Assembly: GCA_016212925.1 (NCBI GenBank) | Contig: JACRDF010000043.1 | Coordinates: forward strand, 13,726 to 77,725 | Origin: Desulfomonile tiedjei | GTDB lineage: Bacteria; Desulfobacterota; Desulfomonilia; Desulfomonilales; Desulfomonilaceae | Direction of reading: 5' to 3' | Length of the DNA: 64,000 nucleotides | Shown here: positions 741 through 62,160 of the stretch, piece by piece | How the letters are laid out: the number at the start of each line of letters is the position of its first letter | How positions within the stretch are numbered: the first letter of the stretch is position 1 | The notes under the pieces: model-generated | What the model saw: the letters and a program-made list of their open reading frames with translations, nothing else | The model's database searches: none | Told to the model about the DNA's origin: nothing | Translations under genes and position numbers: made by a program

Positions 741-846
741 TGCAGGTGAAAGCTCCTATGCCCGCTCAAGGCCAAGCATTGCTCTAATGGTGAAGCCAAC
801 TCGGGAGTCCGCCACATGGCGGTCCCTGTGGCTCACCTCCAAGCCC

Positions 847-1893
847 CTATAACACGATGGCCATGACTCTCTCAAGCAGCATCAATTCCCGCTTGGCCAG
901 GACGATGTTTTTGTACATAGGGTTCATGGATTTGAGAAGTAGGCTTTCGCCCACAAATTCCACTTTCTTCACGAAAGCTCGACCGTCGGAGCGATTCTTG
1001 AAAATTACCAGGTCCCCGTCTTTAACTTCTTCCCAGGATTCGGGCTTGATGAACAGAAGTGTCCCGTCACCGAAGAATTCCTGCAAGGAATCACCTCTGA
1101 CTCTTACACAATAGAGTCGTTGAGCAAAGGACGGGTCCACTCCAGGAGGTATTTCGACCTGCTCGAAGCCCTCGCCTGCTGCGAACCCTCCGTCGGTAAA
1201 CTCAAATCCCATTCCTGCGCTGACATGGCCTACCATTGGGATTGTTCGAGCATATGTGAATCCCGGCGTGTCAGACAGGATTTTGGCCAACGTCTCCATT
1301 GCTTCACGAATTGTGCTCGCTTCGGCAAAGACCCGGACATCGTCGACCTCCGAGTCCCAAGCCCATGAGAAAGGTTTGTCCTGAAGGAATCGGACCAGTT
1401 CTTCATCGATGAACTCTCGATTGGACCTCGCGCGGTTACAGAATTCTTTGAACCTCGTCGGAGAGTACGCACGTCCTTCGTCCGGCTCTTCTTGCAGGAT
1501 CATGTAGATCTGCACCATGGCTTGTATGACTCGGTTTTCCGCAGGGTGCAGCTCCATGGAGCGCACTTCGTCCATGAGGCCTTTATCGCGAGCATTCAGG
1601 CGCTTCAGGAGCAACTCCCGTATCTTCGGGAATTTTGCGCTGGGACGAGGCGGAACTCTGTGGAGTTCGAAGCGCACAAGATCCAGGATTTCATCCTCCG
1701 AGGCTGCCAGGAACTCGGCCCAGGTTCTCAACTGCGCCCGATTTCGCGGCCTTCCCAGGTCAGGAGGGTTCTTTTTTCCCGTAAATATCTGAGAAACGTA
1801 GGCAGGAGAAACCCCAAGCTGTTCAGCCAGGGTTTTCTGGTTTCTTCCCAGCCGCCTGCTTCTCTCTTTGGCGAAAGATCCGAATGTTTTCAT
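847..1893 (-). CDS. XRE-family HTH transcriptional regulator fused to an S24 LexA/CI-like self-cleaving peptidase domain
   Basis: N-terminal HTH (LAEQLGVSPAYVSQIFTGKKNP). The C-terminus is S24-like (VRVRGDSLQEFFGDGTLLFIKP...GDLVIFKNRSDGRAFVKKV). At 348 aa it carries a roughly 150 aa insert between the two domains. Confidence 0.7.
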   Translation of the reverse strand: MKTFGSFAKERSRRLGRNQKTLAEQLGVSPAYVSQIFTGKKNPPDLGRPRNRAQLRTWAEFLAASEDEILDLVRFELHRVPPRPSAKFPKIRELLLKRLNARDKGLMDEVRSMELHPAENRVIQAMVQIYMILQEEPDEGRAYSPTRFKEFCNRARSNREFIDEELVRFLQDKPFSWAWDSEVDDVRVFAEASTIREAMETLAKILSDTPGFTYARTIPMVGHVSAGMGFEFTDGGFAAGEGFEQVEIPPGVDPSFAQRLYCVRVRGDSLQEFFGDGTLLFIKPESWEEVKDGDLVIFKNRSDGRAFVKKVEFVGESLLLKSMNPMYKNIVLAKRELMLLERVMAIVL

Positions 1894-2130
1894 ATCTCGT
1901 GGACACCAGGTATTATCGCTTTTGTTGGATGCGCGGCGAATCAGTGGATAAGTTTACCATAATATTTAACAAAAATTCTAGACTATTGAAATTAACTGTC
2001 AAGGGAAATTTTCCAGCCGCAGCTTGCCTCGAATGCCCCGGCGCTGGCTGGCTAGGTCTGGTTCTCAGGCTCTGCCCGGAAACACATGTCATTTCAACCA
2101 AGCCAGGGAGGCGGAGCCTTGGAGCCGGGA

Positions 2131-21210: not shown

Positions 21211-23292
21211 CTACTTTCCCTGGGCTGTGGACCCAATGAACGAGAAGTCTGCAATTTGGGCGAAGAAGTCCGCGATTTGTCGGAGCATTCCCAGTCGATT
21301 GTTGCGCAATTTTTCGTCTTCCACCATTACCATTACTTTGTCGAAGAGGGTGTCGATGGGTGACTTGAGTTCGGCAATTATCTCCAGGGCCTGTGCGTAA
21401 TTACCTTCGAGAATGAGCGGTTCGGACCTTGCGGTTACATCCTGGAATGCCGTGAAAAGCGCTTTCTCTGCTTCTTCTTCGAGCAACTCGGGAGCGAATG
21501 CGGTGGGCTCGGTATCCTTGAGAATGTTCACCACCCGCTTGAATCCGATCATAATCGCGTCGAAGTCCGACCTCTGCTTCCATTCATTGAGCGCGTCCAC
21601 CCTTCGTCGCGCGTCCACGATGTCATCGAACCGGGCCCTCACCGCGGCTTCGACCACATCAAGCGGAAAATCGCGCGAGGTGTGGAAATTGACGAATCGG
21701 GTCCGAATGAACTCGGTCACGTCCGCGACGACCTGGTCTTCGTCGCGGGTCCGCTTCTGGGCGAGCAGCGACACTGCCAATCGTACCAGCCAGCTCAAAT
21801 CAAGCGCCTTATCCAGTTGAATCAGGATCTGGATGACGGCAAGAGCGTGGCGGCGCAGGGCATAGGGGTCCGCGGCGCCCGTTGGTATCAGTCCGACGCT
21901 GAAGCACCCTGCGATGGTGTCCATGCGATCGGCAACAGAAACCAGGGAGCCTAGAATTCCCTGGGGAAGATTGTCCCCTGCGTATGCCGGGAGATAGTGC
22001 TCTCTGATGGCGGTCGAGACTTCCTCCGTTTCACCATCCATCTTGGCGTAATAACTGCCGATTATGCCTTGCAGTTCGGGGAATTCATAGACGATACCGG
22101 TCTCGAGGTCGCATTTGCACAATAGCGCGGCCCTCTCGACATCGGCTGTTTTTTCAGGAGCGAGGCGCTCAGCCAGTTTTTTGGCCAGGTAGGTGAAGCG
22201 TTCCACTTTCTCGTGAGCTGTGCCCAATTTGGAATGAAAAACCACCCCCTCCAGGGCCTGAAGACGATCCATCAACGGGATCTTCCGGTCTTCCCGGAAA
22301 TAAAAGCGGGCATCTTCCAAACGGGCCTTCAGGACCCTTTGATGCCCCTTCACGGACACAGCCGGGTCCTTCACGGGAGTGTTGTTTACCGCGATGAAAC
22401 GGTTGGTAATTCTCCCTGCATCGTCTTGGACGGAGAAATACCGCTGGTGCTTTTTCATGCAAGTTATCAGGATGGACGCGGGGAGTTCGAGAAAGTCCGA
22501 TGAGAATCGGCCCATTATAGGATGAGGGCTCTCAACAATGTGTGTCACTTCATCGAGCAGTTCCGTGTCTTCAAAGACCTGGAGTTTCTCGCCCGCGGCA
22601 AGTTCCTTTGTACGCCGCTCAATTAGCTCGCGACGCTGAACCGGATCGATGGTGACATCACGGGCCTGCAAGGACTCCTGTAGGTCTTTCAGCGATTTAA
22701 CGGGAAACGGCTCTGCATGGGTAAACCGATGACCGCGGCTCCGATCTCCGCTGGCCACACTGCCGAACGTGAAAGGGATCACTTTGCCGTCGAAGAGGGC
22801 CACAATCCAATGAACCGGCCTGGCGAATCTGGCGTCCAGGTCCATCCAGCGCATGGTCTTCGGAAACGGAATCTTTTCCAGCAGTCCGGGAATGATGGCT
22901 GCCAGCGCCTCTCCCGTGGGCTGTCCGGTTTCGGTCTTACGAACCGCGACCTGATCTCCTTTGGCACCCGAAACAACGACCAATTCCGAAACATCAACCC
23001 CTTGGCTGCGAGCAAACCCGATCGCGGCTTTGGTGGGATTACCCTGAGCGTCATAAGCCGCGGTGACAGCAGGACCCGTCTTTTCAATTTCTCTCGTGGC
23101 CTGAACCGAATCAACATCAATGGCGTGCAATATCATTCGCCTGGGTGTGGCGTAAGTTCTTACCTGGCCGTGGCCTACGCGTGCATTTTCCAGCACCGCG
23201 GTGAAAAGATCTGAAAATGCTTGGAGCGCGGGAGGTATAAAGCCTGCCGGGATCTCTTCAGTCCCTATTTCGAGAAGAAACTCGCCTTTCAT
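21211..23292 (-). CDS. glyS: Glycine--tRNA ligase beta subunit
   Basis: N-terminus [20 protein letters not shown]. At 693 aa it is the right length. It overlaps glyQ by 4 nt, the classic glyQS arrangement. Confidence 0.9.
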
Positions 23293-24221
23293 CGCTCGGA
23301 CCTGCTTTCGGAGAATTTATTGAGGAGCGGAAATCCCATAGCTTCGCGCTGGGCCAGGTAAGCGGCAGCCGCTTTCCTCGCCAGATTACGCACTCTGTGT
23401 ATGTATGCGGTCCGTTCCGCGACACTGATGGCCCCGCGAGCGTCCAACATATTGAAAATGTGGGAACATTTCAGGCAATAATCGTATCCCGGAAGGACGA
23501 GGGGTTCATCCGAATCCAGCAGAGCGTCACCTTCAGCCTCGTACATGTCAAAAAGTTTGAACATCATTGCTGCGTCGGACCTGTTGAAATTGTAGATAGA
23601 GCCTTCAACTTCCGAACGATGATGAATGTCTCCGTAGGTGATATCCCCGGTCCACTTCAGATCGTAAACACTCTCCACACCCTGCAAATACATGCAGATT
23701 CTTTCGATGCCGTATGTGAGTTCAACTGAAACCGGCTTCAGATCTATTCCACCGGCCTGCTGGAAGTAGGTGAACTGCGTGATCTCCATGCCGTCGAGCC
23801 AGACTTCCCAACCGACTCCCCAAGCGCCCAGAGTGGGCGATTCCCAGTCGTCCTCGACAAACCGTATGTCATGGGCCAGAGGGTCAATCCCGAATGCAGC
23901 CAGCGATTCGATGTAAATGTCCTGCACTTCCAGAGGAGAAGGCTTGAGAATGACCTGATACTGATAGTAATGCTGAAGCCTGTTGGGATTCTCGCCGTAG
24001 CGCCCGTCCGTGGGCCTTCTGGACGGCTCGACGTAAGCGACGTTCCACGGCTCCGGCCCCAGCACCCTCAAGAACGTAGCAGGGTTCATTGTCCCGGCGC
24101 CTTTTTCCATGTCATAGGGCTGCTGAATCACGCAACCTCTGTCGGCCCAGAATTTCTCAAGAGCGAGTATCAATCCTTGAAAGGTAAGCATGGCAGGCCT
24201 CTTTGCGGTATTCTCCATCAT
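23289..24221 (-). CDS. glyQ: Glycine--tRNA ligase alpha subunit
   Basis: [35 protein letters not shown]...[19 protein letters not shown] is near-identical to the E. coli GlyQ core. Confidence 0.9.
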
Positions 24222-24322
24222 GAGTCGATGGAAACAGATATATAATCGGACTTTTGTAACACCGGGCGAGGCCCGGAGTCAAGGTTAAGCGCTGGAATAA
24301 GGAAAAGCCATGTTCCGGAGTC

Positions 24323-24407
24323 GTGGGGCAGGCCCGCGAGCCGCGGGATTCCAGCCTGCCTACTCCAAAATGGCCATCATGACAGGCTGGAAAGCCTGTC
24401 CCACAAA
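24323..24407. repeat. Dispersed palindromic repeat family D (ggcaggc...cagcctgcc...caggctggaaagcctgtcccacaa), copy 1; copy 2 is at 42199-42290
   Basis: Shared stem-loop-forming sequence in two intergenic regions. Confidence 0.45.
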
Positions 24408-24469
24408 ACTTCCCCCGGCCATTTGTGTTCGCGTTTGATTTTTCCGATCTCCACGACCTATAATGGGGT

Positions 24470-25249
24470 TTGTTTTTTTCGGAGATCGGTCAGGAGGGAG
24501 ATTGGTTGATGTTCCAGTACGCGGCTATAGTCCTATTTTGTTTAAGCTTGATTATGGGGCAGGGAGCCGCGGCTGCCCTCGCCCAAGGGGACGACATACA
24601 GTCGCAGACCGATAGAGCAAAGGCAGCTCTGCAAGGCGGCCGGCTCGACGAAGCCATAGAAATATTTTCAAACCTCATCCGAAAAGAATCTCAAGCCGAT
24701 TGCTATTTTCAAAGGGCCCTCGCATATGACAGGGCACACAAATATGGACCGGCGATCCAAGATCTTGATACAGCCGTCTCTATGGAGCCGAACCAAGCAA
24801 ATTACTATCTGAAAAGAGGAATTCTTCTGCGTCGAACCGGAGAGCATGAGGCAGCTCTCACGGATTTCACGAAGGTCCTGGAGCTTGATCCGACCAATGT
24901 GAGTGCTTTGGGGAATAGGGGCAGGGTTTTGTTCGCCATCGGCGACACGGCCAAAGCCCTCGAAGACGTTCAGCGGGCCATCGGGTACAACTCTGAATCA
25001 GCTGCCTTGTACCTCCTGAGAGGAGACATTTACACTGCCGCGGGGAATTACCAGAATGCGGTGAGGGACTACGATAGAGCGATCCAGCTGAAAGCCGACG
25101 CTTTTGCGGCCTACAACAACCGAGGTATTGCCCTGGCCAATTTGGGAAAGACCAGGGAGGCAGTCGAGGATCTCAACAGAGCCATGGAAATTGCCTCTTC
25201 GTTCTCGTCAATGGGACAGGTACCGGGCATGTCCGGCAACTCCTGGTAA
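24470..25249 (+). CDS. Secreted tetratricopeptide-repeat protein
   Basis: Signal peptide (AAIVLFCLSLIMGQGAAAALAQG). At least 6 TPR units follow (AxxYxxRGxxxxxxGxxxxAxxDxxxAxxL periodicity). Confidence 0.65.
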   Translation: MFFSEIGQEGDWLMFQYAAIVLFCLSLIMGQGAAAALAQGDDIQSQTDRAKAALQGGRLDEAIEIFSNLIRKESQADCYFQRALAYDRAHKYGPAIQDLDTAVSMEPNQANYYLKRGILLRRTGEHEAALTDFTKVLELDPTNVSALGNRGRVLFAIGDTAKALEDVQRAIGYNSESAALYLLRGDIYTAAGNYQNAVRDYDRAIQLKADAFAAYNNRGIALANLGKTREAVEDLNRAMEIASSFSSMGQVPGMSGNSW

Positions 25250-25465
25250 AATAGCCGAAGGTTGCCCAAAATCTTTGATTGATGACGACTTCTAAAGCGG
25301 CCCCGTTAACGCCTGCCAAGTTGTTCTCTCCCGTCATCCGTTTGGAACAAAAAGGTTGATTGCTCTTCGGACGAGGGTTCCGGACCCCAATGAGTGCGAG
25401 GAAAGAACGGGGATTTCATTGGTCCTCGCATAGCACCAATTTTCACATCAAGGATAACTAGAAAT

Positions 25466-25951
25466 ATGACCCCACGCGACTTAAAAACCAAAGAAGAATG
25501 GCAAGAAATCTTGAACCGATTCGCTACAGAAACCAAGATGACGGCCACCCTGACCGACAGTACGGGCAAGCAATTGATTGGCACGAACAGCAGGGGCCCT
25601 TTGTGCGCAGCCGTCAGAGAAAACGAGAAAGCGCTAACATTCATCTGCAGCCAGACCAACACGGCGATGCTGGCTGTCATAAGGAAGATCCTTCGGCCGG
25701 AGTTAGATCTCTGTGAAGCAGGTCTGATCCGTGTCGTTGTCCCCATTGTCAAGGATGGCTCATTGATAGGCCAAGTGACGGCGTGCGGACTGGCTTCCGA
25801 TGAGGAGGAACCTAACTCTTTTCTCGTGAGTAAGGAGCTTGGTATTTCGGAGGAGAAGGCAATTGAACTTTCGCAATCGATCCCGTTAGGTTCTGAGGAG
25901 GAACTCCGGGAAATATGCTCACGTCTATTCAATGAACTAAATACCAAATGA
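25466..25951 (+). CDS. Standalone PocR-type sensory (ligand-binding) domain protein
   Basis: TPRDLKTKEEWQEILNRFATETKMTATLTDSTGKQLIGTNSRGPLCAAVRENEKALTFICSQTNTAML...LCEAGLIRVVVPIVKDGSLIGQVTACG matches the PocR domain. No histidine-kinase or AraC output is fused to it. Confidence 0.55.
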   Translation: MTPRDLKTKEEWQEILNRFATETKMTATLTDSTGKQLIGTNSRGPLCAAVRENEKALTFICSQTNTAMLAVIRKILRPELDLCEAGLIRVVVPIVKDGSLIGQVTACGLASDEEEPNSFLVSKELGISEEKAIELSQSIPLGSEEELREICSRLFNELNTK

Positions 25952-26137
25952 ATTTCTTCGAAGACCGGCAGCCCTAAATAAGGAATGACCATCGGACGAT
26001 GCCGCTGTCATTCCGCTCGCGCCCGCAACTACTTGCGGAATCGATGGAAGGTCAGTAATGATAGGGGCGTCGCTCGCGTCCGCAAGCCGTCGGTCGCACC
26101 TCTCTCCTGAGACGAACACACTTTCGGAGCTTCGACC

Positions 26138-26872
26138 ATGACAGATAAGATCTGGTACGTCGTGATGGTTCCCATGGTGTACCTGGCCTTTGCCTGGTCC
26201 ATCATATGGATTGCGATCAAAATAGTCGGCATTCTGAGAGCCCCCAAACTGCCGGCCACTCTGAGGATTTTCCCCGAAGGCCTAGATTGCGAGGACACTT
26301 CGACCACCGGTTTGTCGGGCGCGATATGGGACGCGTTCACCATGCCTTCAGTCCGCAAGTACAAGCCTCTGTTGTGGGCTTTTCTCGTGATATTTCATGT
26401 AGCTGTCGTTGCCCTCATTCTGGCGCACCTCGATCTCCTCCCGCAGATCAACATTATGCCCGCGCAATCGGAGCACATGCTGGGAAACGGAGCGGTGGGC
26501 GTCATTATCACCGTATCGCTTCTATACCTGCTCTTCCGGAGGTTCCGCAGTCCTGTCCGGGAGGTATCCATCCCCGCGGACTACCTGCTGTTGGTCCTTC
26601 TCTTGGCCATCGCCGTAAGTGGTGACATCATCAGTTGGGGCAACTCGTGGACCGACAGCGGATTCGTGATGACCAAGAAAGACTTCGGCCTGTATTTGGA
26701 AAGCTTGTTCAAATTCGACTTTGCCGATCCGCGTCAATTCCTGAGCGGATCTCACTATTCGGTCATAGGTGCTCACGTGCTGCTGGTGAATCTTCTTCTG
26801 ATTTATCTTCCCTTCAGCAAGATCATGCACGTCTTCTTTGCCGTGCCGCTCAACAAACTGAGGAGAGGATGA
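26138..26872 (+). CDS. NarI-type membrane b-cytochrome subunit (HdrE/DsrM-like)
   Basis: Five predicted TM helices with conserved His residues in helices (HVAVVALILAHLD, HYSVIGAHVLLV). It overlaps the HdrD-like gene by 4 nt (ATGA). Confidence 0.55.
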   Translation: MTDKIWYVVMVPMVYLAFAWSIIWIAIKIVGILRAPKLPATLRIFPEGLDCEDTSTTGLSGAIWDAFTMPSVRKYKPLLWAFLVIFHVAVVALILAHLDLLPQINIMPAQSEHMLGNGAVGVIITVSLLYLLFRRFRSPVREVSIPADYLLLVLLLAIAVSGDIISWGNSWTDSGFVMTKKDFGLYLESLFKFDFADPRQFLSGSHYSVIGAHVLLVNLLLIYLPFSKIMHVFFAVPLNKLRRG

Positions 26873-28125
26873 CCATGGAAGACGCCCAGAAACAAAGCTT
26901 GCTGGCACTCATGGCAGAGAAACTCAATCAATCCGTACAGATGTACCTGGACAACTGCACTCGTTGCGGCACTTGCATTGACGCGTGCCACGCGTACGCG
27001 TCCACGGGTGATATCCGTTATTCAGCAGTGGGCAGGGCCCAGAATATCCGTAGGCTGTTTGAGAATTACCACAAAATTACGGGCAAGATCGCTCCGTGGC
27101 TCAATGAGGCTGTTGAACTTGACGAAAGATGGATGGACAGGGTCTACGAGACTGCGTTCACCTGTACCGGCTGCCGCCGGTGCATGACGTACTGCCCCTT
27201 CGGGATAGATACACAGCAGATCCAGTCCATTGCCAAGGCCCTGCTCATCGGCGCGGACATGGACCCCAAGCCGCTGACCATGAAGGCCAAAGCCGAAATC
27301 GCCAAGGGCGAGAACTTCGAGGCCACCAAGCAGAAATTTCAGAAAGAACTGGACAAAATACGCGGAGAGGTCTCCCAAAGATGGCCGGGTTCAGCCAAAG
27401 GCGACGTCGTTCCCATAGACGTTAAGGGAGCAAATGTGCTCTTCGTATCAATGGCCGAGAAGCCCTCCATAGTCCCTGCTGCGGGAATAATGAACGCGGC
27501 CGGCGAAAAATGGTCGTTGAGCTATTACGAGGCGGTGAACTTCGGCGCGTTTCTCGGAAGCCCCACCATGACCCAGCAGATTTACCAGCGGATAGTTTCC
27601 GAAGCAGAGGAGCTTGGCGTCAAGGAAATGGTCATCTGCGAGTGCGGGACAGCCTATCGCATCATGAAGCACGTGATCGGCAAACGAGACTTCAAGGTCA
27701 TCACCATCCTACAGCTCATAGATCGGTACCTCAAAGAAGGAAGGATAAAGCTGGACAAGTCGGTGATAGAGGGGCGAATAACCTACCATGATCCATGTCA
27801 AATCGCCCGCAACGGCGGGATCTACGAGGAGCCCCGCAATTGTCTGAAGGCCCTCACTGACGACTTTGTTGATATGAGCCCGAACCGACAGGCCAACTGG
27901 TGTTGCGGCGGCGGAGGCGGACTTGTGATAGCGCAGGAGCCGGAATTCCGCATGATGACCTCCAGGGTCAAAGTGGATCAGATAAAGGCCACTGGAGCTG
28001 ATATCGTGACGACCGCATGTGAGATGTGCTTCGCTCAGCTCAAAGATCTCAATGATGACTTCGAATTGGATTTGGAGGTAAAACTGGTTTCCGACCTGGT
28101 AGCAGACGCGCTTGTGGTAGACTAA
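26869..28125 (+). CDS. HdrD/DsrK-like Fe-S oxidoreductase (two 4Fe-4S motifs and two CCG Cys-rich domains)
   Basis: CTRCGTCIDACHAY and CTGCRRCMTYCP form the ferredoxin-like part. C-terminal CCG domains (HDPCQIARNGG..., NWCCGGGGG, TACEMCFAQ) are typical of HdrD/GlpC/DsrK. Start MTMEDAQ is at 26869. Confidence 0.75.
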   Translation: MTMEDAQKQSLLALMAEKLNQSVQMYLDNCTRCGTCIDACHAYASTGDIRYSAVGRAQNIRRLFENYHKITGKIAPWLNEAVELDERWMDRVYETAFTCTGCRRCMTYCPFGIDTQQIQSIAKALLIGADMDPKPLTMKAKAEIAKGENFEATKQKFQKELDKIRGEVSQRWPGSAKGDVVPIDVKGANVLFVSMAEKPSIVPAAGIMNAAGEKWSLSYYEAVNFGAFLGSPTMTQQIYQRIVSEAEELGVKEMVICECGTAYRIMKHVIGKRDFKVITILQLIDRYLKEGRIKLDKSVIEGRITYHDPCQIARNGGIYEEPRNCLKALTDDFVDMSPNRQANWCCGGGGGLVIAQEPEFRMMTSRVKVDQIKATGADIVTTACEMCFAQLKDLNDDFELDLEVKLVSDLVADALVVD

Positions 28126-28168
28126 TATGATGTGACTAATCACTTGCCATAATCACAAAATGAAACAC

Positions 28169-28197
28169 TTGACCTGGGGCCAGTGTCTCAGTATAAA
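28169..28197 (+). promoter_or_regulatory. Sigma70-like promoter TTGACC-N17-TATAAA ahead of the RelE-like module
   Basis: ttgacc at 28169-28174, a 17 nt spacer, tataaa at 28192-28197. The first ORF starts at 28232. Confidence 0.4.
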
Positions 28198-28231
28198 TGA
28201 CTAAGAATGCTCTGACGGAGGAGCAACAGCC

Positions 28232-28423
28232 ATGCCACAAATGAAGCGGATTGATGACGGCACATGGCCGGTCGAGCCAAAACCGACAGAAGAAAAGAAG
28301 ATGCCGGAAGAGGAATCAGAAGACTATCTCGACTACTGTGCTGCGGCTGAAGCAATAGACGAGGCACTGGAAACAGGCGAAATTCGATCGTTCGAGGATT
28401 TCGCCAAAGAAGTCGGCATTTAA
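28232..28423 (+). CDS. Small acidic protein, candidate antitoxin of the downstream RelE/ParE-like toxin
   Basis: 63 aa and highly acidic (EEESEDYLDYCAAAEAIDEALETGEIRSFEDFAKEVGI). It has a GGAG RBS and sits 8 nt upstream of the toxin gene. Confidence 0.4.
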   Translation: MPQMKRIDDGTWPVEPKPTEEKKMPEEESEDYLDYCAAAEAIDEALETGEIRSFEDFAKEVGI

Positions 28424-28431
28424 GTACCTCC

Positions 28432-28986
28432 GTGGATTATTCTCTCTACATCTTAGGCCATGCCGAGCGGGACATTAAGAAACTCAAAAAACAGCATCCA
28501 CAACTGGCCTCCAATCTAGCCGATAGAATTAGAAAATTATCTCAAAATCCTCGGCCTGAGCGCTGCCAGGCGCTGGAGGGCCAGGCAGATCTTTACCGAA
28601 TCCATTTTGGTGATGGTAAGTTTCGAATAATATACAGCATTCTAGATGACCCCCAGGCTATAATAATAGTCGCGATCAGACGGAGAAACGAGAGCACTTA
28701 CAAGAAGATTGACAGAAAAAACCTTTCGGAAAAGATCAAATCCCTTAACCTCGAATTGAAAGAAACGATAAGTATCGTTGCCGATCTGGCACGCAAGATT
28801 GGCATCGAGTGGATAGCCAATCTGGATGATGACCAAGTGAGAATTCTCGCTGGGGGCATCCAAGCGATTACGGGCGGTCGCAGTTCTCTTCCAACAATCG
28901 CAGTGCAGATTCAGGAAGCGGTCAAGGTCAAAGAAGACATCAAAACCATTACAAGGGACATGAAGCGCCTTCTACAAGAAATGTAA
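28432..28986 (+). CDS. RelE/ParE-family toxin domain (~90 aa) fused to an uncharacterised ~95 aa C-terminal extension
   Basis: The N-terminus MDYSLYILGHAERDIKKLKK...ALEGQADLYRIHFGDGKFRIIYSILDDPQAIIIVAIRRRNESTY is a RelE/ParE fold signature. Residues 95-184 are predicted helical, with no homology I recognise. Confidence 0.65.
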   Translation: MDYSLYILGHAERDIKKLKKQHPQLASNLADRIRKLSQNPRPERCQALEGQADLYRIHFGDGKFRIIYSILDDPQAIIIVAIRRRNESTYKKIDRKNLSEKIKSLNLELKETISIVADLARKIGIEWIANLDDDQVRILAGGIQAITGGRSSLPTIAVQIQEAVKVKEDIKTITRDMKRLLQEM

Positions 28987-29189
28987 GCTTTGTCAGATGA
29001 GCAATTCAGGAACCCTTCCGGACGCGGACATTTTCCGCGAAAATTTCATGCTTGAAAACGCATTCGGCGTATACATAGTGTGGCCCTTGATGCCATCCTT
29101 TTCCATTCAACCGACGGGTACCGCCCGCGCATCCTATCCCGGATGGGGACCGCAAGAATTCTCGTCCTATCCATTCCCCTAACAGAATC

Positions 29190-30053
29190 ATGCATACTTC
29201 CGGTGAAATAAGAAAGCTGTTCAAAAAGCACGGTCTTGCGCCGAAAAAATGGATGGGCCAGAACCTTCTGGTCGATGACGGTTTTCTGAAGAAGATCGTG
29301 CAGGCCGCAAGGATTGACCCCGGAGAGACAATTGTCGAGGTCGGCGCGGGTCTGGGAGTCCTCACCGAGGAACTGGCGCGACGAGGTGCGAACGTCGTAG
29401 CGCTGGAACTCGACTCAGGGTTTTTCAGTGTCCTGCAAGAAAGATTCGCGGCCTCGCATCAGGTTGAACTCATCCACGCAGATGCGATGACATTCGATTT
29501 CCAGGCCCTTGCGTCCAGGGTCGGAAAACTTCGGGTGGTAGCTAACCTGCCTTACAATATTTCCAGCCGATTGATCTTCACCTTCCTTGAACATCGAGAC
29601 CTGTTCCGGTCTTTGCACATCCTTCTTCAAAGAGAAGTCGCGGAGCGCTTTATCGCCCCACCCGGGACAAAAGACTATGGAGTTCTAACCGTGCTCTTGG
29701 GAGTAAGCTCGGCTGTGGATCTATTGTTCGACATCCCGGCTAAGGCCTTTTATCCTGTTCCTGAGGTAGTCTCCACCCTCGTCCGGGTTACCTTCCCTGA
29801 CGAGCCGCCGGTGCTGGTCGCGGACGCGCGGTTGCTCGTCGGGCTGGTGAAAGCTTCTTTCGCGGGACGCCGCAAGACCTTGAGGAACACCCTGCGTAAT
29901 TTTGCTTTGCCTGGGCTGACACCGGAATTGCTAAATGAGGCGGCAGAGGATGCGGGGATAGACCTCGGCAGGCGCGGGGAAACGCTCTCCCCGATTGAGT
30001 TTGCACGGTTTGCGGATGCCATTCACGCGAGGGTTCAAGAGCAGTTGCCCTGA
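29190..30053 (+). CDS. rsmA: 16S rRNA (adenine1518/1519-N6)-dimethyltransferase RsmA/KsgA
   Basis: WMGQNLLVDDGFLKKIV...VEVGAGLGVLTEEL...VALELD...ANLPYNISS are KsgA motifs. Confidence 0.85.
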   Translation: MHTSGEIRKLFKKHGLAPKKWMGQNLLVDDGFLKKIVQAARIDPGETIVEVGAGLGVLTEELARRGANVVALELDSGFFSVLQERFAASHQVELIHADAMTFDFQALASRVGKLRVVANLPYNISSRLIFTFLEHRDLFRSLHILLQREVAERFIAPPGTKDYGVLTVLLGVSSAVDLLFDIPAKAFYPVPEVVSTLVRVTFPDEPPVLVADARLLVGLVKASFAGRRKTLRNTLRNFALPGLTPELLNEAAEDAGIDLGRRGETLSPIEFARFADAIHARVQEQLP

Positions 30054-30087
30054 GCTACAGTTCGGGCTGGGAAACACTCCGGGCAGT

Positions 30088-30190
30088 AGGATGTGGTGAC
30101 CGAAGGGAACCGTCCCGCGAGACGGGGGATTCGCTGTGATGTGTCTCGATTGATGCGGTTCGCTGCACTCACCGCATCCTACAGCCCTAA
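30088..30190. repeat. ~95 nt structured repeat family B, copy 1; a direct repeat of 30952-31044. Together they bracket the DUF433/DUF5615 gene pair
   Basis: aggatgtggtgaccgaagggaaccgtcccgcgagacgggggattcgc...ctcgattgatgcggttcgctgcactcaccgcatcct. The ends are complementary (aggatgYggtga / tcaccgcatcct) and there is an internal cccgcgagacgcggg hairpin. Confidence 0.5.
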
Positions 30191-30320
30191 GTTACGGCCC
30201 GTTCTTGGAAGTGCAGAGGATAATAGAGAATCCCCTCGGATTTCGGCTTGACAGGTCGCGGCAGTATCCGTCAGTATGGGGGCCGAATAAGCCTCAAAGG
30301 CTTTAGAAGTGAGGTTGTAA

Positions 30321-30545
30321 ATGCATATAGCGTGGCAGGATTACATAGAAAGCACGCCGGATGTACTACATGGCAAACCGCGAATCAAGAGTACAAGAAT
30401 TCCTGTAAGCCTTTTGCTCGGCTATCTTGCTGAAGGATACAGTCCCGAGCAGATTATCGGCGAGTTTCCGGATCTCAACAAAGAGCAGATTGCCGCCTGC
30501 CTGGACTATGCTCGTGATTTAGCGGAATTTGAAGTGGCAGTCTGA
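30321..30545 (+). CDS. DUF433-family small protein (putative antitoxin-like partner)
   Basis: HGKPRIKSTRIPVSLLLGYLAEGYSPEQIIGEFPDLNKEQIAACLDYA is the DUF433 signature. Its stop overlaps the start of the next gene (TGATG). Confidence 0.7.
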   Translation: MHIAWQDYIESTPDVLHGKPRIKSTRIPVSLLLGYLAEGYSPEQIIGEFPDLNKEQIAACLDYARDLAEFEVAV

Positions 30546-30913
30546 TGGGTCTAAGATTCTTTGCCGACCATTGTGTGCCCAATTCCGTCTTAAGGGCATT
30601 ACGCGATGGAGGCCATGAGGTTTTCATTCTGAAGGAGCATCTTCCACAAGATGCATCAGACTCGACCGTCATTGCCAGAGTTCAGGAATTGAATGCCATC
30701 TTGGTCTCGTTGAATGGGGACTTCGCGGATATAGTAACCTACCCGCCGTCCAATTATAAAGGTATCATTGCGATGCAAGTTAAGAATCATCCGGAGACCA
30801 TTCCGGCATTAATGCAAAGACTTATGAATTACTTCTCCGACCATCCGGAAATGACCCATTACCAGGGCAGACTCTTGGTTGTGGAACCTCATAAGATCAG
30901 GATTCGGAAATGA
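30545..30913 (+). CDS. DUF5615-family (PIN-like / Mut7-C-like nuclease fold) protein, putative toxin partner of DUF433
   Basis: MGLRFFADHCVPNSVLRALRDGGHEVFILKEHL..DASDSTVIARVQELNAILVSLNGDFAD matches DUF5615. It is translationally coupled to the DUF433 gene. Confidence 0.7.
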   Translation: MGLRFFADHCVPNSVLRALRDGGHEVFILKEHLPQDASDSTVIARVQELNAILVSLNGDFADIVTYPPSNYKGIIAMQVKNHPETIPALMQRLMNYFSDHPEMTHYQGRLLVVEPHKIRIRK

Positions 30914-30951
30914 AAAATTGGGCTGTGCCCGGCGGCGCGCCACAGGGCCGC

Positions 30952-31044
30952 AGGATCCGGTGACCGAAGGGAACCTTCCCGCGAGACGCGGGATTCGCGT
31001 TCATGTGGCTCGATTGATGCGGTTCGCTGGGCTCACCGCATCCT
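30952..31044. repeat. Repeat family B, copy 2
   Basis: See 30088-30190. About 85% identity over roughly 93 nt, same orientation. Confidence 0.5.
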
Positions 31045-31066
31045 GCTCCCGAGAGAAAATATGCCG

Positions 31067-31138
31067 GCACGGAGGCCGGCACTACCGATTTCCAGGAGGC
31101 GCTTTTCGCAGTCGGACATTATTTTGACACTTGCTATG
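31067..31138. repeat. Repeat family C, copy 2
   Basis: aaaatatgccggcacggaggccggcactaccgatttccaggaggcgct...tcggacattattttgacacttgctat versus 2131-2215. Confidence 0.5.
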
Positions 31139-31244
31139 GCAGTTCTCGAAAGTAATGACGGATTGACCTATGGGTGCCACTGCTGGCTTGTCCAGCAGTG
31201 CGGTTCCATTCAGAAAGAACTTTCGAGAATCACTATATAAGAGA

Positions 31245-32756
31245 TCATTTCTTATCCACCGGTGTCTGAGGCGGTGCAGTCACGGATGGTGCTTTGCCGT
31301 GAACTCGGCCGAGAAACTCCGGCAATTCCAATCCAACCATTTTAGCAAGTTCGTGCATCGGTGGAATCACCCCCATGAAACGACGCCCAAGGTCGGAAAG
31401 GCCTCCGTCACCACCGCCGCTGTCCCAGACTACGATCTTGTCAATCGGCAGGTTCTTGACCGCTTCGACCTGAAGGCCGGTGAGTTCGGTCAGCTTTTCG
31501 ATCAACAGCAGCACCGCAGTCGCGGAAGGATCTGAAGCGCAGGATTCCACCAGGGCCTTGTAACCCGCGGCCTTGGCGTCCAACTGGGCCTGAGCGCCCT
31601 GGGCCTCGGCTTGCATCTTAACGAGGACCGATTCCGCGTCCCCTTTGGCCACGAGCACCCTCTTCTGGCGCTCGGCCTCAGCGGCCACAATCGCCCTCTC
31701 GCGGTCAGCTTGGGCAGGCACCACTACTTCGGCCTTTAGCCTGGCTTCTTCACGGCGAGCGCGAGCCTCCTCGGCAAGCCGCTGTGCGTCCTCCTGTGCG
31801 ACGCGAATCGTGGCGTCAGCCTGCACCGCGGCTGTCTGGCCCTTGCCCCTGGCTTCTTCTTCCGCTACCTTCTGGCCGGCCTGGAACCCTGCCTTCTTGG
31901 CATTGGCCATAGTTTCGGTCTCTACAGCGTCCGCATCAAGCAATGACACCTTTTGGCGCCTGTCGCGACCGGCTTCGGCCTCGCCGACGGCACCGCCGGC
32001 TTCGGCTGCTGCCACAGCCTTTCTTCTATCGCGGTCGGCTTCGGCCTCGCCGACAGTAGCCAGAGCATTAGCTGCGGCCACCGCTTTACGCTGATCGCGC
32101 TCTCGCTCCGCGACACCTATCTTCCCCAGCTTCTCCTGTTCAGCCACGTCGATCAGGGCCTGGTTGACCGCTTCCGCGGCAGCCTTACGGCCAAGGGCCC
32201 TGATGTACCCGCTGTCATCCTCGATATCTTTGATATTTACATTGATTACCGTAAGGCCTATCTTTTCAAGTTCAACAGAAACCGCGTCGTTCACTTTGGC
32301 CATGAACGCCTGCCGATCGCGATTGATTTCTTCTATCCTCATTGTTGCAATTACGGCTCGCATTTGGCCGAGTATGATGTCCTGCGCCTGTTTTCGGACA
32401 TCTTCGATACCTTGCCCCAGCAACCGCACCGCTGCATTCTGCATGATGCCTTCCTCAGTGCTGATGGCTGCGGTGACCGTGGTGGGAACGGAGACGCGGA
32501 TGTTCTCCTGAGAAAGGGCGTTTGCCAGTTCGATGGGAACGACGAAAGGCTCCAGGTCCAGCCACTCGTACGACTGGAGCACCGGCCACACGAAGGCTGC
32601 GCCGCCATGGACGCACTTGGCCGCCCCTTGGCCGGTCTTCCCGTAAACGACGAGAATTTGGTTGGACGGGCATCTCTTATAACGGCCGATAAATACCCAC
32701 AAAAGCGCACAAATGACCACCGCCAGGATGACCGTCAGACTCAACGCTGTCACCAT
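31245..32756 (-). CDS. Flotillin-like SPFH/band-7 protein (YqiK/FloA type) with a long Ala/Glu-rich coiled coil containing a tandem internal repeat
   Basis: N-terminal TM then an SPFH core (ILVVYGKTGQGAAKCVHGGAAFVWPVLQSYEWLDLEPFVVPIEL...). A tandem ~22 aa repeat is RKAVAAANALATVGEAEADRDR / RKAVAAAEAGGAVGEAEAGRDR. The start is taken at MVTALSL so that it abuts the NfeD stop. Confidence 0.8.
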   Translation of the reverse strand: MVTALSLTVILAVVICALLWVFIGRYKRCPSNQILVVYGKTGQGAAKCVHGGAAFVWPVLQSYEWLDLEPFVVPIELANALSQENIRVSVPTTVTAAISTEEGIMQNAAVRLLGQGIEDVRKQAQDIILGQMRAVIATMRIEEINRDRQAFMAKVNDAVSVELEKIGLTVINVNIKDIEDDSGYIRALGRKAAAEAVNQALIDVAEQEKLGKIGVAERERDQRKAVAAANALATVGEAEADRDRRKAVAAAEAGGAVGEAEAGRDRRQKVSLLDADAVETETMANAKKAGFQAGQKVAEEEARGKGQTAAVQADATIRVAQEDAQRLAEEARARREEARLKAEVVVPAQADRERAIVAAEAERQKRVLVAKGDAESVLVKMQAEAQGAQAQLDAKAAGYKALVESCASDPSATAVLLLIEKLTELTGLQVEAVKNLPIDKIVVWDSGGGDGGLSDLGRRFMGVIPPMHELAKMVGLELPEFLGRVHGKAPSVTAPPQTPVDKK

Positions 32757-32757
32757 C

Positions 32758-33396
32758 TCATCCCTCCTCCGGGTTCCGAATTCCCTCAACTTCTACCGTG
32801 TTGTCGTTCACAACACCGACCACTCTCACTTCGGCGCCGGATGTCAATGGGCCGCCGTCGCGGGAGCGAGCGTTCACAAAACTGATTGCGCCGCTAACCA
32901 TAACTCGTATTTTGCCTGTTCCGCCCTCGGGAATGTCCATGTAAACCGTGCCTTCTTCTCCAATCGCGGTCCACACGGAGGCGTTGCCGCGTTCCTGTTG
33001 GCTCAGCAGCCAATAGAGCACGTAGGACACCGCAAACATGGCAACCAATCCCCAGGCAGCACTGTACAAGATGGCGAGGATTGCCGAGACCCCGGTGGCT
33101 AGATAGAGCGCACCGGCCCAACTGAACAGCGTCCCGAAAGCTATGATTGAGCGAATTGATACAAAGGTGAAAGTGGCTGCCTCACCGCCGTATTCGTGCC
33201 CGCTCTCGCCCCCGGAGTCACCGGCGTGGCCGAAGTCGCCGTGATCGACGCCTTCAGCGCCGATGTGAGCGTGGGCGTCGGTGTCCATGCCCATGATCAT
33301 GATCACAATCTGCCAGAGGAAGAGCACGGTGAAGGCCAGGGCTGATATCACAAAGGCCTTGTTGAGTAAACTCAAACCCAGCCACCAGGATTCCAT
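32758..33396 (-). CDS. NfeD/YqiJ-family membrane protein (C-terminal OB-fold), partner of the flotillin
   Basis: N-terminal TM helices, a His/Gly/Asp-rich loop, further TM helices, then an OB-fold-like tail (GTVYMDIPEGGTGKIRVMVSG...VRVVGVVNDNTVEVE). Classic yqiJ-yqiK order. Confidence 0.7.
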   Translation of the reverse strand: MESWWLGLSLLNKAFVISALAFTVLFLWQIVIMIMGMDTDAHAHIGAEGVDHGDFGHAGDSGGESGHEYGGEAATFTFVSIRSIIAFGTLFSWAGALYLATGVSAILAILYSAAWGLVAMFAVSYVLYWLLSQQERGNASVWTAIGEEGTVYMDIPEGGTGKIRVMVSGAISFVNARSRDGGPLTSGAEVRVVGVVNDNTVEVEGIRNPEEG

Positions 33397-39989: not shown

Positions 39990-40296
39990 TCAGTGGCACC
40001 CAACAGCCAATCAGGTGCCGGCCCTCGTGCCGGCACCTTTTTAGGATACCAATCAATCACGCCTAGGGCGTGACCTGGCAGGGACCCCGGATCGCGGTCC
40101 GGGGCAGGCTCTGGGCCCTACCGAGTTCTCTGAGCGCCGGCAGTTCCAAAGGTCAGAATTTGTGCCAACTGGCATGATTTAGTTAATAAGTTTTGTAATA
40201 ACAGATAATAATCAATGGAACATAAATTTTGTATGATGGTCTAACTTTAATGACGGATGATTATGATGGTTATTATTTAAGGATCTGGAGACTACC

Positions 40297-61922: not shown

Positions 61923-62160
61923 TGGCAAATTTTTTTCCGATTGGCAACCACTCCATTCCGTCATTCCTGCGGAGGTAGGGATCGTAGGGCCGGCGTCCCT
62001 GCCGGCCAAAATGGGCACCGGCACGGAGGCCGGCCCCTACAAGGTTCCCGCCTTCGCGGGAACGACGGGCGTTATAACGCTCTTGAAAAGTAGGCCCTGT
62101 AGATACGATCTGAAGACCAGATTGATTATCTTCCGGCCAAATGGACATTACTTTTGGCAA
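61923..62160. mobile_element. MITE-like element, copy 3 (238 bp)
   Basis: TIRs tggcaaatttttttccgattggcaa / ccggccaaatggacattacttttggcaa. The ~100 nt 3' module is about 93% identical to copy 2. Confidence 0.55.

Follow-up and report, generated by a model that had tools for sequence, protein, structure and literature searches.

Downstream of the housekeeping gene rsmA, a predicted toxin-antitoxin (TA) gene pair of the DUF433/DUF5615 type is bracketed by two long and closely similar repeats in direct orientation, raising the question of whether these repeats are the ends or footprints of a mobile cassette, regulatory or terminator structures of the gene pair, or members of a small structured RNA family, as an earlier note on this DNA had variously suggested. 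We consider it probable, at roughly 85%, that they are sister REPINs, later colonists of the two spacers that are neither boundaries of the TA cassette nor dedicated regulatory RNA. The term REPIN denotes selfish, non-autonomous DNA composed of two inverted REP (repetitive extragenic palindromic) units. On this reading the repeat finding is real but ordinary, because the copies represent a known kind of selfish repeat and not cassette ends. The definitions of the REPIN/RAYT system and of head-to-head dimers, together with the dependence of TnpA_REP on GTAG and single-stranded DNA, are taken from the accounts given in PMC3337134, PMC3733652 and PMC3333891. Throughout, ‘the window’ denotes the whole 64-kb stretch of DNA that was analysed, and all positions (Table 1) are numbered along it.

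Table 1. Features of the rsmA region of the window, with the evidence for each
Feature	Position	Strand	Evidence
Second TA pair: 63-aa RelB-like antitoxin (28232-28423), ParE/RelE-fold toxin (28432-28986)	28232..28986	+	Domain searches, relatives
rsmA (16S rRNA dimethyltransferase), housekeeping anchor	29190..30053	+	Pfam RrnaAD, E 7e-54; homologues
REPIN copy 1	30081..30187	+	Direct repeat; long hairpin; 77.9-bit covariance-model match at 30086-30182
Copy 1, degenerate left arm and spacer: GTAGGATGTGGTGACCGAAGGGAACCG then TCCCGCGAGACGGGGGA insert	30086..30144	+	nhmmer E 0.9 only; alignment to canonical REPINs
Copy 1, right arm, intact REP unit CGATTGATGCGGTTCGCTGCACTCACCGCATCCTAC	30145..30183	+	nhmmer profile of 139 units, E 1.3e-13
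Conserved block ATTTCGGCTTGACA, promoter-like, with TTGACA at 30248-30253	30240..30253	+	Alignment with L217
DUF433 (COG2442) predicted antitoxin, 74 aa	30321..30545	+	Pfam PF04255, E 3.5e-23
DUF5615/PIN_10 predicted toxin, 122 aa	30545..30913	+	Pfam PF18480, E 3.6e-14; PF18478
REPIN copy 2	30945..31051	+	Direct repeat; hairpin; covariance-model match, 65.7 bits
Second repeat family, copy	31049..31137	-	Pairs with 2125-2214, 82% over 91 nt

The gene pair and its surroundings

The identity and translational coupling of the two genes, as originally read from the open reading frames, are borne out by the Pfam matches and by a one-base overlap of the DUF433 stop and DUF5615 start codons (TGATG), with the antitoxin gene first and both genes co-directional. 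This layout fits that of a type II TA system, in which toxicity and its neutralisation are here predicted from sequence. Pairing of a PIN-domain protein with COG2442 has been described as a predicted TA system (Makarova et al. 2009, PMC2701414), and the window pair resembles it both in the position of the gene for a small DNA-binding DUF433 protein, which immediately precedes a PIN-like nuclease gene and overlaps it, and in a widespread but patchy distribution, as expected for mobile TA modules; it differs in that the predicted toxin is of the DUF5615/PIN_10 (Mut7-C-like) type. Homologues of the DUF5615 protein number 1233, many of them of 122 aa and 65-80% identical, from several phyla, and the combination of a 74-aa with a 122-aa protein was also identified in L217, L218, L221 and L222, the last of which shows the same bracketing pattern as the window with a different repeat. 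Exact-protein matches to the toxin and to RsmA were confined to one 6.8-kb Logan contig carrying the same locus. The promoter-like ATTTCGGCTTGACA block upstream of DUF433, outside the bounds of REPIN copy 1, also accompanies the cassette of L217, which has no REP. Upstream of rsmA, the RelB/ParE-like pair is absent from all relatives examined and has no flanking repeats.

Structure of the two repeats

The direct repeats of ~95 nt seen initially are confirmed as a pair of 100-nt sequences, 88% identical (30081-30180 and 30945-31044; blastn E = 2e-32), forming the sole direct-repeat family reported by the repeat search, with a start-to-start distance of 864 nt. No third copy was found in the 64-kb window by blastn, and neither an nhmmer profile of the REP unit nor a covariance model run with filters off detected REPINs in the window besides these two, the next-best covariance-model match having an E-value of 0.19; only two copies, 864 nt apart, are thus visible in 64 kb. 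Both share the orientation of the gene upstream of each, copy 1 lying 28-33 nt past the rsmA stop codon and copy 2 ~32 nt past that of the toxin gene. Measured from GTAG to CTAC or their equivalents, the elements extend over 30086-30182 and 30950-31046, so that the end first given for copy 1 (30190) was slightly long.

The complementary termini noted at the outset are real, and each copy folds as a whole into one long hairpin, with arms that are inverted and complementary over ~37 nt (copy 1, -58.6 kcal/mol, z -5.8 against shuffled sequences; copy 2, -55.7 kcal/mol, z -3.4); the minus strand of both copies folds equally well. An inner CCCGCGAGACGCGGG hairpin, also part of the first description, is clear in copy 2 but weaker in copy 1. 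Copy 1 is a head-to-head doublet of GTAG-type REPs, with GTAG at 30086-30089 and CTAC at 30179-30182, and its palindrome continues outward as GGGC...GCCC. Copy 2 has GCAG where copy 1 has GTAG, in both arms alike, a compensatory substitution that places GCAG at 30950-30953 and CTGC at 31043-31046. The GTAG ends of each element face outward, the arrangement that defines a head-to-head dimer.

The two arms are unequally preserved. The right arms of both copies form an 8-bp stem of GATGCGGT and ACCGCATC around a loop of 11-12 nt, with the GTAG of copy 1 on the minus strand, and that of copy 2 (31009-31046) is recognised by the REP-unit profile at an E-value of 1.7e-12. The left arm of copy 1 cannot fold alone because its 3' half-stem ACCGCATC has been lost, and the same loss in the left arm of copy 2 leaves one intact REP per element. 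The window copies accordingly represent a derived 97-nt form, in which a 17-nt hairpin insert disrupts the left REP, and they are sister copies carrying the same derived left arm and insert.

A REP family flanking transposase genes

The unit recognised in the right arms, GTAG followed by GATGCGGT, an 11-12 nt loop and ACCGCATC, was retrieved at over 200 loci, belonging to Gammaproteobacteria, Betaproteobacteria and Desulfomonile-like MAGs (Thermodesulfobacteriota), and its core of 28-36 nt is almost invariant from Gammaproteobacteria to the Desulfomonile-like Thermodesulfobacteriota. An 18-mer of the right arm matched 89 metagenome loci and a 28-nt REP pattern matched at least 120 genome loci, with Lysobacter, Pseudoxanthomonas, Thiodiazotropha, Metapseudomonas, Sulfuricella, ‘delta proteobacterium’ MAGs and a Desulfomonile tiedjei MAG among the genome matches listed. 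The CTAC end is kept in the family consensus (T in 130, A in 125 and C in 132 of 139 units). Head-to-head arrangement accounts for 107 of 159 neighbouring pairs of REP units, the remainder being tail-to-tail (27) or head-to-tail (25), and 100 distinct head-to-head dimers of 69-135 nt were collected; both window copies can be aligned over their full length with REPINs of a Desulfomonile MAG (L106) and of L098, L157 and L168. The degenerate left-arm pattern GACCGAAGGGAACCNTCCCGCGAG had 0 matches in a representative genome collection of which the source MAG is not a member, and copy 2, translated as a peptide, gave one weak match only among 1.84 billion protein representatives, with no open reading frame from a sister copy. 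A search of the searchable literature for the sequence GATGCGGT-loop-ACCGCATC did not find it, returning one unrelated match only.

In other genomes the family is multi-copy, ~30 loci coming from one Thiodiazotropha MAG, and individual loci may hold 5-10 REP units (L055, L174, L191). In metagenome contigs the units adjoin transposase genes. An open reading frame of L055 flanked by these REPs scores 212 bits on NF047646, the REP-associated tyrosine transposase (RAYT) family, for which the cut-off is 80 bits; the same locus has a tandem array of five REPINs, such arrays being devoid of open reading frames. RAYT homologues adjoin REPs in seven further loci (L067, L022, L045, L015, L058, L072 and L026), and REP clusters elsewhere bracket RAYT genes and also various small genes such as Peptidase_M78, DUF5619 and Rep3. 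The 64-kb window itself has no RAYT gene, and no entry from Desulfomonile is visible in the best 120 of more than 7800 RAYT homologues, these 120 being mostly unnamed and, where named, mainly from Gammaproteobacteria. As a member of a REP family that is widespread and does not depend on TA genes for its existence, the repeat is hard to interpret as a footprint of the TA cassette.

The rsmA locus in relatives

In the closest relatives (L211-L216, RsmA 82-85% identical), a DsrK-like gene, rsmA and a flotillin gene follow one another, and both the ParE pair and the DUF433/DUF5615 pair are absent at the rsmA locus, supporting the proposal that an accessory TA hotspot surrounds rsmA in the window. 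Three of these relatives (L211, L214 and L215) carry a REP relic, GTAGGATGCGGCG, 10 nt past the rsmA stop codon, with no TA genes. The opposite state is found in L217 and L218, where rsmA is followed by DUF433-DUF5615, 82% identical at the nucleotide level over 30298-30916 and accompanied by the upstream ATTTCGGCTTGACA block, with no REP on either side of the cassette. A dN/dS comparison of the window with L217, addressing the age of the TA genes relative to rsmA, gave dS values of 0.84-1.13 and 1.40, respectively, all of them near saturation.

Since L217 and L218 possess the TA genes without REPs and closer relatives possess the relic without TA genes, the REPINs are best seen as having colonised both spacers and not as the ends of a cassette; that the same cassette stands after rsmA without any REP tells against the notion of footprints or termini of a mobile TA unit. 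In essence, the repeat proved to be one of a REP-like family scattered elsewhere, without covariation in its stems, an outcome that the earlier note had itself set against a special role, with the reservation that two DUF433/DUF5615 pairs outside the window adjoin REPs of this family.

A possible composite REPIN-TA-REPIN unit

Among the alternatives, the one that survives best, although we regard it as unlikely, holds that the two REPINs and the TA cassette are functionally linked and that a REPIN-TA-REPIN unit is gained or lost through the repeats. Two routes are conceivable: homologous recombination between the direct copies would release a circle with the TA genes and one REPIN, or a RAYT would cut at two REPs on the same strand, in the manner of IS200/IS605 ends excising a single-stranded circle. 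The direct orientation of sister copies sharing the same derived insert agrees with such a unit, as does the lone REP relic that TA-less relatives retain at the corresponding site behind rsmA, an outcome expected of deletion between repeats; in L211, however, the sequence beyond the relic lacks homology to that beyond copy 2, and neither a circular nor an empty-site junction has been observed. TnpA_REP in vitro cuts CT sites several hundred nucleotides from the REP and catalyses strand exchange (PMC3333891), and in E. coli the ccdO157 TA system occupies a variable spacer in which TA-less strains carry a REP, as reported in PMC3184786. L217 and L218 nevertheless hold the same cassette after rsmA with a REP on neither side.

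Associations in other genomes are similarly divided. In 1.36 Mb of REP-selected loci just two DUF433/DUF5615 pairs were present, in the unrelated genomes L168 and L124, and both lie 60-250 nt from REPs of this family. A composite unit would explain why, counting the window with L168 and L124, at least three unrelated genomes place these genes beside REP-type repeats; L222 has a homologous TA pair between copies of a different, 86-nt direct repeat, next to a weak RAYT-like gene. Both L168 and L124, however, have a REP on one side only, two adjacent pairs among 209 loci correspond to p of roughly 0.04-0.07 on crude assumptions, and REP clusters of the same family bracket many unrelated small genes. 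The adjacency in L168 and L124 is suggestive but not significant, two cases being too few for a link. Somewhat less credible again is the wider proposition that direct REPINs may serve as transferable sites of recombination or excision, by which small accessory operons would be captured or lost at housekeeping spacers through RecA-dependent exchange or RAYT cutting; were REP-mediated capture and loss of TA cassettes true, RAYT/REPIN systems would gain a role in gene flow.

Cis-acting RNA and other interpretations

A selected function as cis-acting RNA, with one element serving as terminator or insulator after rsmA and the other terminating the TA mRNA or stabilising its 3' end, is very improbable. 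The placement of both copies ~30 nt past a stop codon in the orientation of the upstream gene, their very stable folding as RNA, and the mRNA 3'-end stabilisation and transcription attenuation reported for REPs (summarised in PMC3733652) would all suit such a function, but a T-run follows neither copy, a terminator scan reported nothing at the two REPINs, the elements show neither covariation nor an Rfam match, the opposite strand is just as stable when folded, and the homologous TA cassette of L217 does without the elements. A cis-regulatory or terminator role, as once suggested, would be a side effect at most.

Membership of a structured RNA family, the other RNA interpretation raised at the start, fares no better, as the stems are conserved in sequence without covariation: the 8-bp REP stem had 0 double changes among 64 independent units, the sole common change producing a T.G wobble on the GTAG strand, and RNAalifold gave a covariation term of +0.84, one pair in 20 having a double change. 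No Rfam family matched at gathering score in the whole window; at an E-value threshold, the best match within 29900-31400 reached 15 bits, where the gathering score is 50, and ARAGORN predicted no tRNA or tmRNA.

Chromosomal integrons typically hold TA cassettes between imperfect palindromes of ~100 nt in direct orientation, and the window has this appearance, yet a degenerate array of attC-like sites (an attC cluster without integrase) with the TA pair as its cassette can be practically dismissed, given element ends of GTAGGATG...CATCCTAC in place of the attC motifs RYYYAAC (R'')...GTTRRRY (R'), a mere two copies in the window, and a REP unit that flanks RAYT genes, not integrases, and forms tandem arrays without open reading frames. 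A classical MITE was likewise rejected, there being no target-site duplication: the flanks (GGGCA/AGCCC for copy 1, GGGCC/TCCCG for copy 2) extend the palindrome and are not direct repeats. CRISPR, considered for the regularly spaced 36-nt units, was set aside on account of their alternating orientation and the RAYT gene that they flank.

Proposed origin of the copies

For the two copies as sister REPINs, an origin can be outlined by analogy with E. coli and Pseudomonas, in which a RAYT acting in trans would recognise the GTAG and hairpin in single-stranded DNA, cut at CT dinucleotides and copy or move the doublet as one unit. One REPIN would have settled ~30 nt past the rsmA stop codon and its sister ~30 nt past that of the toxin gene, the second spacer probably being filled through a local copy event. 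With their left hairpins lost and GCAG in copy 2, the window copies may no longer be good RAYT substrates by the rules established in E. coli (PMC3333891), in which case copy 2 could stem from another route, for example recombination. Effects on the neighbouring genes would be by-products at most, the 3'-end hairpins perhaps stabilising or insulating the rsmA and TA transcripts, and the direct REPIN repeats possibly permitting recombinational loss of the TA pair.

Relation to known systems

The GI-GIII REPINs of P. fluorescens SBW25 and the BIMEs of E. coli with TnpA_REP provide the closest structural counterparts, sharing two inverted REPs with a short spacer that form one long hairpin, GTAG at the outer end of each REP, an extragenic position just past stop codons, a multi-copy family with tandem arrays, a single RAYT (NF047646) flanked by REPs in related contigs, and no target-site duplication. 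The window elements depart from these in their host, a Desulfomonile-like Thermodesulfobacteriota MAG, and in the REP sequence GATGCGGT-loop-ACCGCATC, as well as in the 97-nt form with its left REP disrupted by the 17-nt hairpin insert, the GCAG of copy 2 and the lack of a RAYT gene in the window. Properties described for GTAG-tagged REP families (Di Nocera et al. 2013, PMC3733652) also apply, including the GTAG tail, a stem of 5-13 bp and loop of 2-20 nt, predominance of head-to-head dimers with spacers of 20-100 bp, heterodimers with differing arm loops, and association with transposase genes. The delta-proteobacterial family listed there, GTAG-14 of D. alkenivorans, consists mostly of single units, whereas dimers dominate in the present family.

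A parallel for the locus is found in ccdO157 of E. coli, in the folA-apaH spacer (Mine et al. 2009, reviewed in PMC3184786), where a type II TA system also lies between housekeeping genes in a spacer that varies among close relatives, with a REP in relatives lacking the TA genes. There, the system is CcdAB in place of DUF433/DUF5615, and according to the review the REP belongs to the TA-less state, whereas in the window two REPINs flank the TA genes.

Implications

Explaining a conspicuous repeat as ordinary selfish DNA changes little, while removing two false leads, a mobile TA cassette with footprints and a new RNA family. The comparison puts on record a REP/REPIN family of the GTAG type that ranges from Gammaproteobacteria to Desulfomonile-like Thermodesulfobacteriota, and at one locus it provides a comparative series (TA genes without REP, TA genes flanked by a REPIN on each side, and a REP relic alone) that could be used for the study of REP and TA turnover in housekeeping spacers. 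As a rule for annotation, comparison with REP families should come first whenever a TA pair lies between GTAG...CTAC palindromes.

The second repeat family

A further repeat adjoining copy 2, reported in the earlier note, is also real, the element at 31049-31137 pairing with 2125-2214. This element does not belong to the REPIN and is located downstream of flotillin, a gene of the minus strand; in that reading direction it resembles a 3'-UTR, ending in a terminator-like hairpin at 31082-31061 (GTGCCGGCCTCCGTGCCGGCAT then ATTTTCTC), which is the terminator site nearest the REPINs. The element is absent from L217, and the copies of this second family sit, in direct orientation, at both breakpoints of an inversion relative to L217.

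Two REP doublets flank the toxin–antitoxin pair

A direct repeat of 100 nt (30081-30180 and 30945-31044; repeat search with 29900-31300 read) was found on either side of the DUF433/DUF5615 toxin–antitoxin (TA) pair, with 88% identity, a start-to-start distance of 864 nt and a blastn E of 2e-32 between the copies; no third copy was detected by blastn in the 64-kb window. The earlier note had described both this flanking repeat, with a hairpin in each copy, and the coupling of the two TA genes, and both descriptions held, the genes overlapping by 1 base and being recognised by Pfam (Table). Each copy forms one long hairpin (−58.6 kcal/mol for copy 1 and −55.7 kcal/mol for copy 2; z-scores −5.8 and −3.4 against dinucleotide shuffles), and the opposite strand folds nearly equally in both.

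Table. Genes and repeat elements around rsmA and the TA pair
Feature	Coordinates	Strand	Basis
ParE-fold toxin with small partner upstream	28432-28986	+	Pfam
RsmA	29190-30053	+	Pfam
Copy 1	GTAG 30086 to CTAC 30182	+	REPIN limits
DUF433	30321-30545	+	Pfam E 3.5e-23
DUF5615/PIN_10	30545-30913	+	Pfam E 3.6e-14
Copy 2	GCAG 30950 to CTGC 31046	+	REPIN limits
Band_7/flotillin gene	31245-32789	−	Pfam

The 18-mer TCGATTGATGCGGTTCGC, from the conserved right part of the element, matched 89 metagenome contigs, which by blastn have only the last ~36 nt of the whole element in common, frequently as inverted pairs and tandem arrays. The 28-nt pattern GATGCGGTTCGC-N4-CTCACCGCATCC occurred at at least 120 loci of a genome collection, its hosts among the matches listed being Lysobacter, Pseudoxanthomonas, Thiodiazotropha, Metapseudomonas otitidis, Sulfuricella, Thiobacillus, Thiosymbion, ‘delta proteobacterium’ MAGs and one Desulfomonile tiedjei MAG. 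The consensus of 139 distinct units, (C)GAT(Y)-GATGCGGT-TCGCNNNGCTC-ACCGCATC-CTAC(G), comprises an 8-bp stem, a loop of 11-12 nt and the complement of GTAG (CTAC conservation: T 130/139, A 125/139, C 132/139), and the units thus bear the signature of GTAG-type REPs (PMC3733652). Neighbouring units are arranged head-to-head, with GTAG ends outward, in 107 instances, versus 27 tail-to-tail and 25 head-to-tail; the 100 distinct head-to-head dimers, 69-135 nt long, correspond to the REPINs of Bertels and Rainey (PMC3337134). The window elements are such REP doublets, aligning end to end with dimers of a Desulfomonile MAG (L106), delta MAGs (L098, L157 and L130) and several gammaproteobacterial MAGs, and represent a further example of a kind of element already known. 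Across the REP-bearing loci (L002-L210) the 28-36 nt REP core is nearly invariant between Gamma- and Betaproteobacteria and Thermodesulfobacteriota. In one metagenome contig (Ga0265331_10016328; L030 861-2350) the gene for a Rep3-type plasmid replication initiator (PF01051, E 6.6e-42) lies between two REPs of the family, so plasmid-like DNA, too, carries or adjoins its members.

The REP family is associated with REP-associated tyrosine transposases (RAYTs): REP arrays in L055 enclose an ORF scoring 212 bits on NCBIfam NF047646 (cut-off 80 bits), and RAYT homologues adjoin REP units of the same family in L067, L022, L045, L015, L058 and L072. A divergent RAYT-like protein with no Pfam match, encoded ~0.8 kb from a REP of the window family (L018 5493-6119 and L063 3384-4010, both minus strand), reaches 74.7 bits against the same cut-off of 80; its contigs (Ga0172367 and Ga0172372) belong to a sample series shared with the window's closest relatives, and it is a candidate RAYT subtype of the Desulfomonile-like lineage.

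Derivation of the window copies

The right arms of both elements are canonical REPs (nhmmer E 1.3e-13 for copy 1 and 1.7e-12 for copy 2), and the left arms are scarcely recognised (E 0.9 and 3.9). In the alignment of the window REPINs with those of other genomes (A5), the left arms carry GTAGGATGYGGTGACCGAAGGGAACCG followed by TCCCGCGAGACGSGGGA, the inner hairpin remarked upon in the earlier note, in place of the canonical CATCG, leaving the left REP without its own 3′ half-stem. This derived arm, common to both elements, identifies them as sister copies; its exact variant was absent from all other genomes of the representative collection, and a covariance model derived from A5, with filters off, recovered these two and no other element in the window (next best E 0.19). 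Copy 2 has GCAG/CTGC where copy 1 has GTAG/CTAC, a compensatory change within the long hairpin that alters the tetranucleotide corresponding to the GTAG needed by E. coli TnpA_REP for binding and cleavage (PMC3333891).

Extrapolating from PMC3333891 and PMC3337134, a RAYT acting in trans would bind the GTAG-plus-hairpin in single-stranded DNA and cut at CT, the doublet being copied as one unit; the second copy would stem from a local copy event later than left-arm degeneration. As by-products, the elements may provide the transcripts of rsmA and of the TA pair with 3′-end hairpins, and may offer recombination a substrate for deleting the TA pair; the T-run of an intrinsic terminator is absent at both copies.

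Relation of the REPINs to the TA cassette

A minority reading holds that TA cassettes are gained and lost via REPs. When every six-frame ORF of 209 REP-selected loci (1.36 Mb) was searched with profiles of both TA proteins, two pairs (L168 and L124, toxins confirmed by Pfam) and a lone DUF433 (L205) were found. A 72-nt REPIN lies 57 nt past the toxin stop codon in L168, and a single REP 240 nt upstream of DUF433 in L124; this adjacency of both pairs gives p ~ 0.04-0.07 with n = 2 and crude assumptions. REP clusters of the family bracket RAYT genes in six cases, and also Peptidase_M78, DUF5619, a methionine-synthase fragment, the Rep3 initiator and several unknown small genes, indicating that the family generally tends to enclose small accessory genes. 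A parallel is offered by E. coli ccdO157, a TA system in the variable folA-apaH spacer, which can hold a REP and does so in about half of the isolates surveyed (PMC3184786). A homologous TA pair in L222 is bracketed by another direct repeat, of 86 nt, and this repeat is found upstream of a weak RAYT-like gene and of a VapBC pair as well.

The genomic relatives separate cassette from repeat. L211-L214 (RsmA 85%) and L215/L216 (82%) have the order DsrK-like - rsmA - flotillin, and both the ParE pair and the DUF433/DUF5615 pair are absent at their rsmA locus, supporting the TA hotspot envisaged there by the earlier note. Ten nucleotides past the rsmA stop codon these six carry GTAGGATGCGGCG, which matches the REP 5′ end exactly over 11 nt and is a relic of a REP in the place taken by copy 1. 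L217/L218 (RsmA 79%) have rsmA-DUF433-DUF5615 with gene lengths equal to those of the window, 82% nucleotide identity to 30298-30916 and, upstream, a conserved block, ATTTCGGCTTGACA; this cassette locus shows no detectable REP, and homology to L217 begins past copy 1 and, ahead of copy 2, stops 3 nt past the stop codon of the toxin gene. Since the cassette occurs without REPINs in L217/L218 and a REP without the cassette in L211-L216, the REPINs are not cassette ends, and the proposal that they are footprints of a mobile TA cassette finds no support; cassette and REPINs are independent of each other. Divergence from L217 (dS 1.40 for rsmA, 0.84 for DUF433, 1.13 for DUF5615) is saturated and uninformative on the age of the TA pair relative to the split.

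The suggestion of a structured RNA family finds no support in the pattern of conservation, and neither Rfam nor ARAGORN gave a match for the repeat region or window. No double-sided stem-pair change was seen among 64 distinct full-length units chosen independently of the exact search pattern; the sole frequent stem change (27/64), C to T, makes a C-G pair a T.G wobble on the strand that bears GTAG and a C.A mismatch on the other. A stem mismatch is required by E. coli TnpA_REP for binding (PMC3333891). RNAalifold predicted 20 pairs in the REPIN alignment, one with a double change (covariation term +0.84). The REP family shows no covariation; the near-absence of double changes means that it is held by sequence conservation with strand-specific tolerance, a pattern that fits a protein-read single-stranded DNA hairpin rather than RNA under structural constraint.

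Other features of the locus and its relatives

L222 2060-4017 (Pseudomonadota MAG GCA_043798555.1, JAZDOO010000036.1) has a 47-86 nt repeat (core GTCTGATGGCAATTTCCCAGAAATCATTGCAGT then ATAAAATATAA) in four direct copies, each upstream of a small gene: RAYT-like (NF047646, 37 bits, weak), DUF433/DUF5615, a 69-aa ORF and VapBC. The whole forms a cassette-like TA gene array with a common upstream repeat. The DUF5615 toxin varies unusually little: among the matches listed (P0001-P0120), almost every homologue has a length of exactly 122 aa and an identity of 65-80%. Their MAGs of origin carry the labels Methylomirabilota, Sumerlaeota, Deltaproteobacteria and Pseudomonadota, and such uniformity points to strong constraint, to frequent horizontal transfer of the TA subfamily, or to both.

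Gene order in L217 1-9117 is glyS-glyQ-246aa-rsmA-DUF433-DUF5615-HTH/Peptidase_S24-SLT; in the window (10-2009, minus strand, and 21479-30916, plus strand) S24 and SLT are encoded 28 kb off, on the opposite strand, implying an inversion of about 2010-30916 with one breakpoint directly 3′ of the TA pair. The block at 25249-29172 (PocR - DsrM-like (Nitrate_red_gam) - DsrK-like (CCG/Fer4) - ParE pair) has no counterpart in L217 between the 246-aa gene and rsmA, and the ParE pair (28232-28986), absent from L211-L216, has no repeats at its flanks.

The second repeat family of the earlier note is real (31049-31137 versus 2125-2214, 82%). Its copies sit at both inversion breakpoints, but in direct orientation, and 80-110 nt downstream of minus-strand genes, for flotillin and for a 321-aa protein without Pfam match. 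Read on the minus strand, it is a ~90-nt element ending in a terminator-like hairpin, GTGCCGGCCTCCGTGCCGGCAT, then a T-run, with partial hairpin copies at 40016-40035 and 62016-62035; it may be a repeated 3′-UTR/terminator module or an sRNA. Just downstream of the flotillin gene, at 31178-31200, lies a perfect hairpin with a 9-bp stem, CACTGCTGG-CTTGT-CCAGCAGTG, kept at 97-100% in L211 (3217-3246 and 3259-3288) and L215 (2727-2755 and 1343-1373), where the rest of the spacer is unalignable and the hairpin stands as an inverted doublet and in another spacer; it appears to represent a second REP-like family, specific to the lineage.
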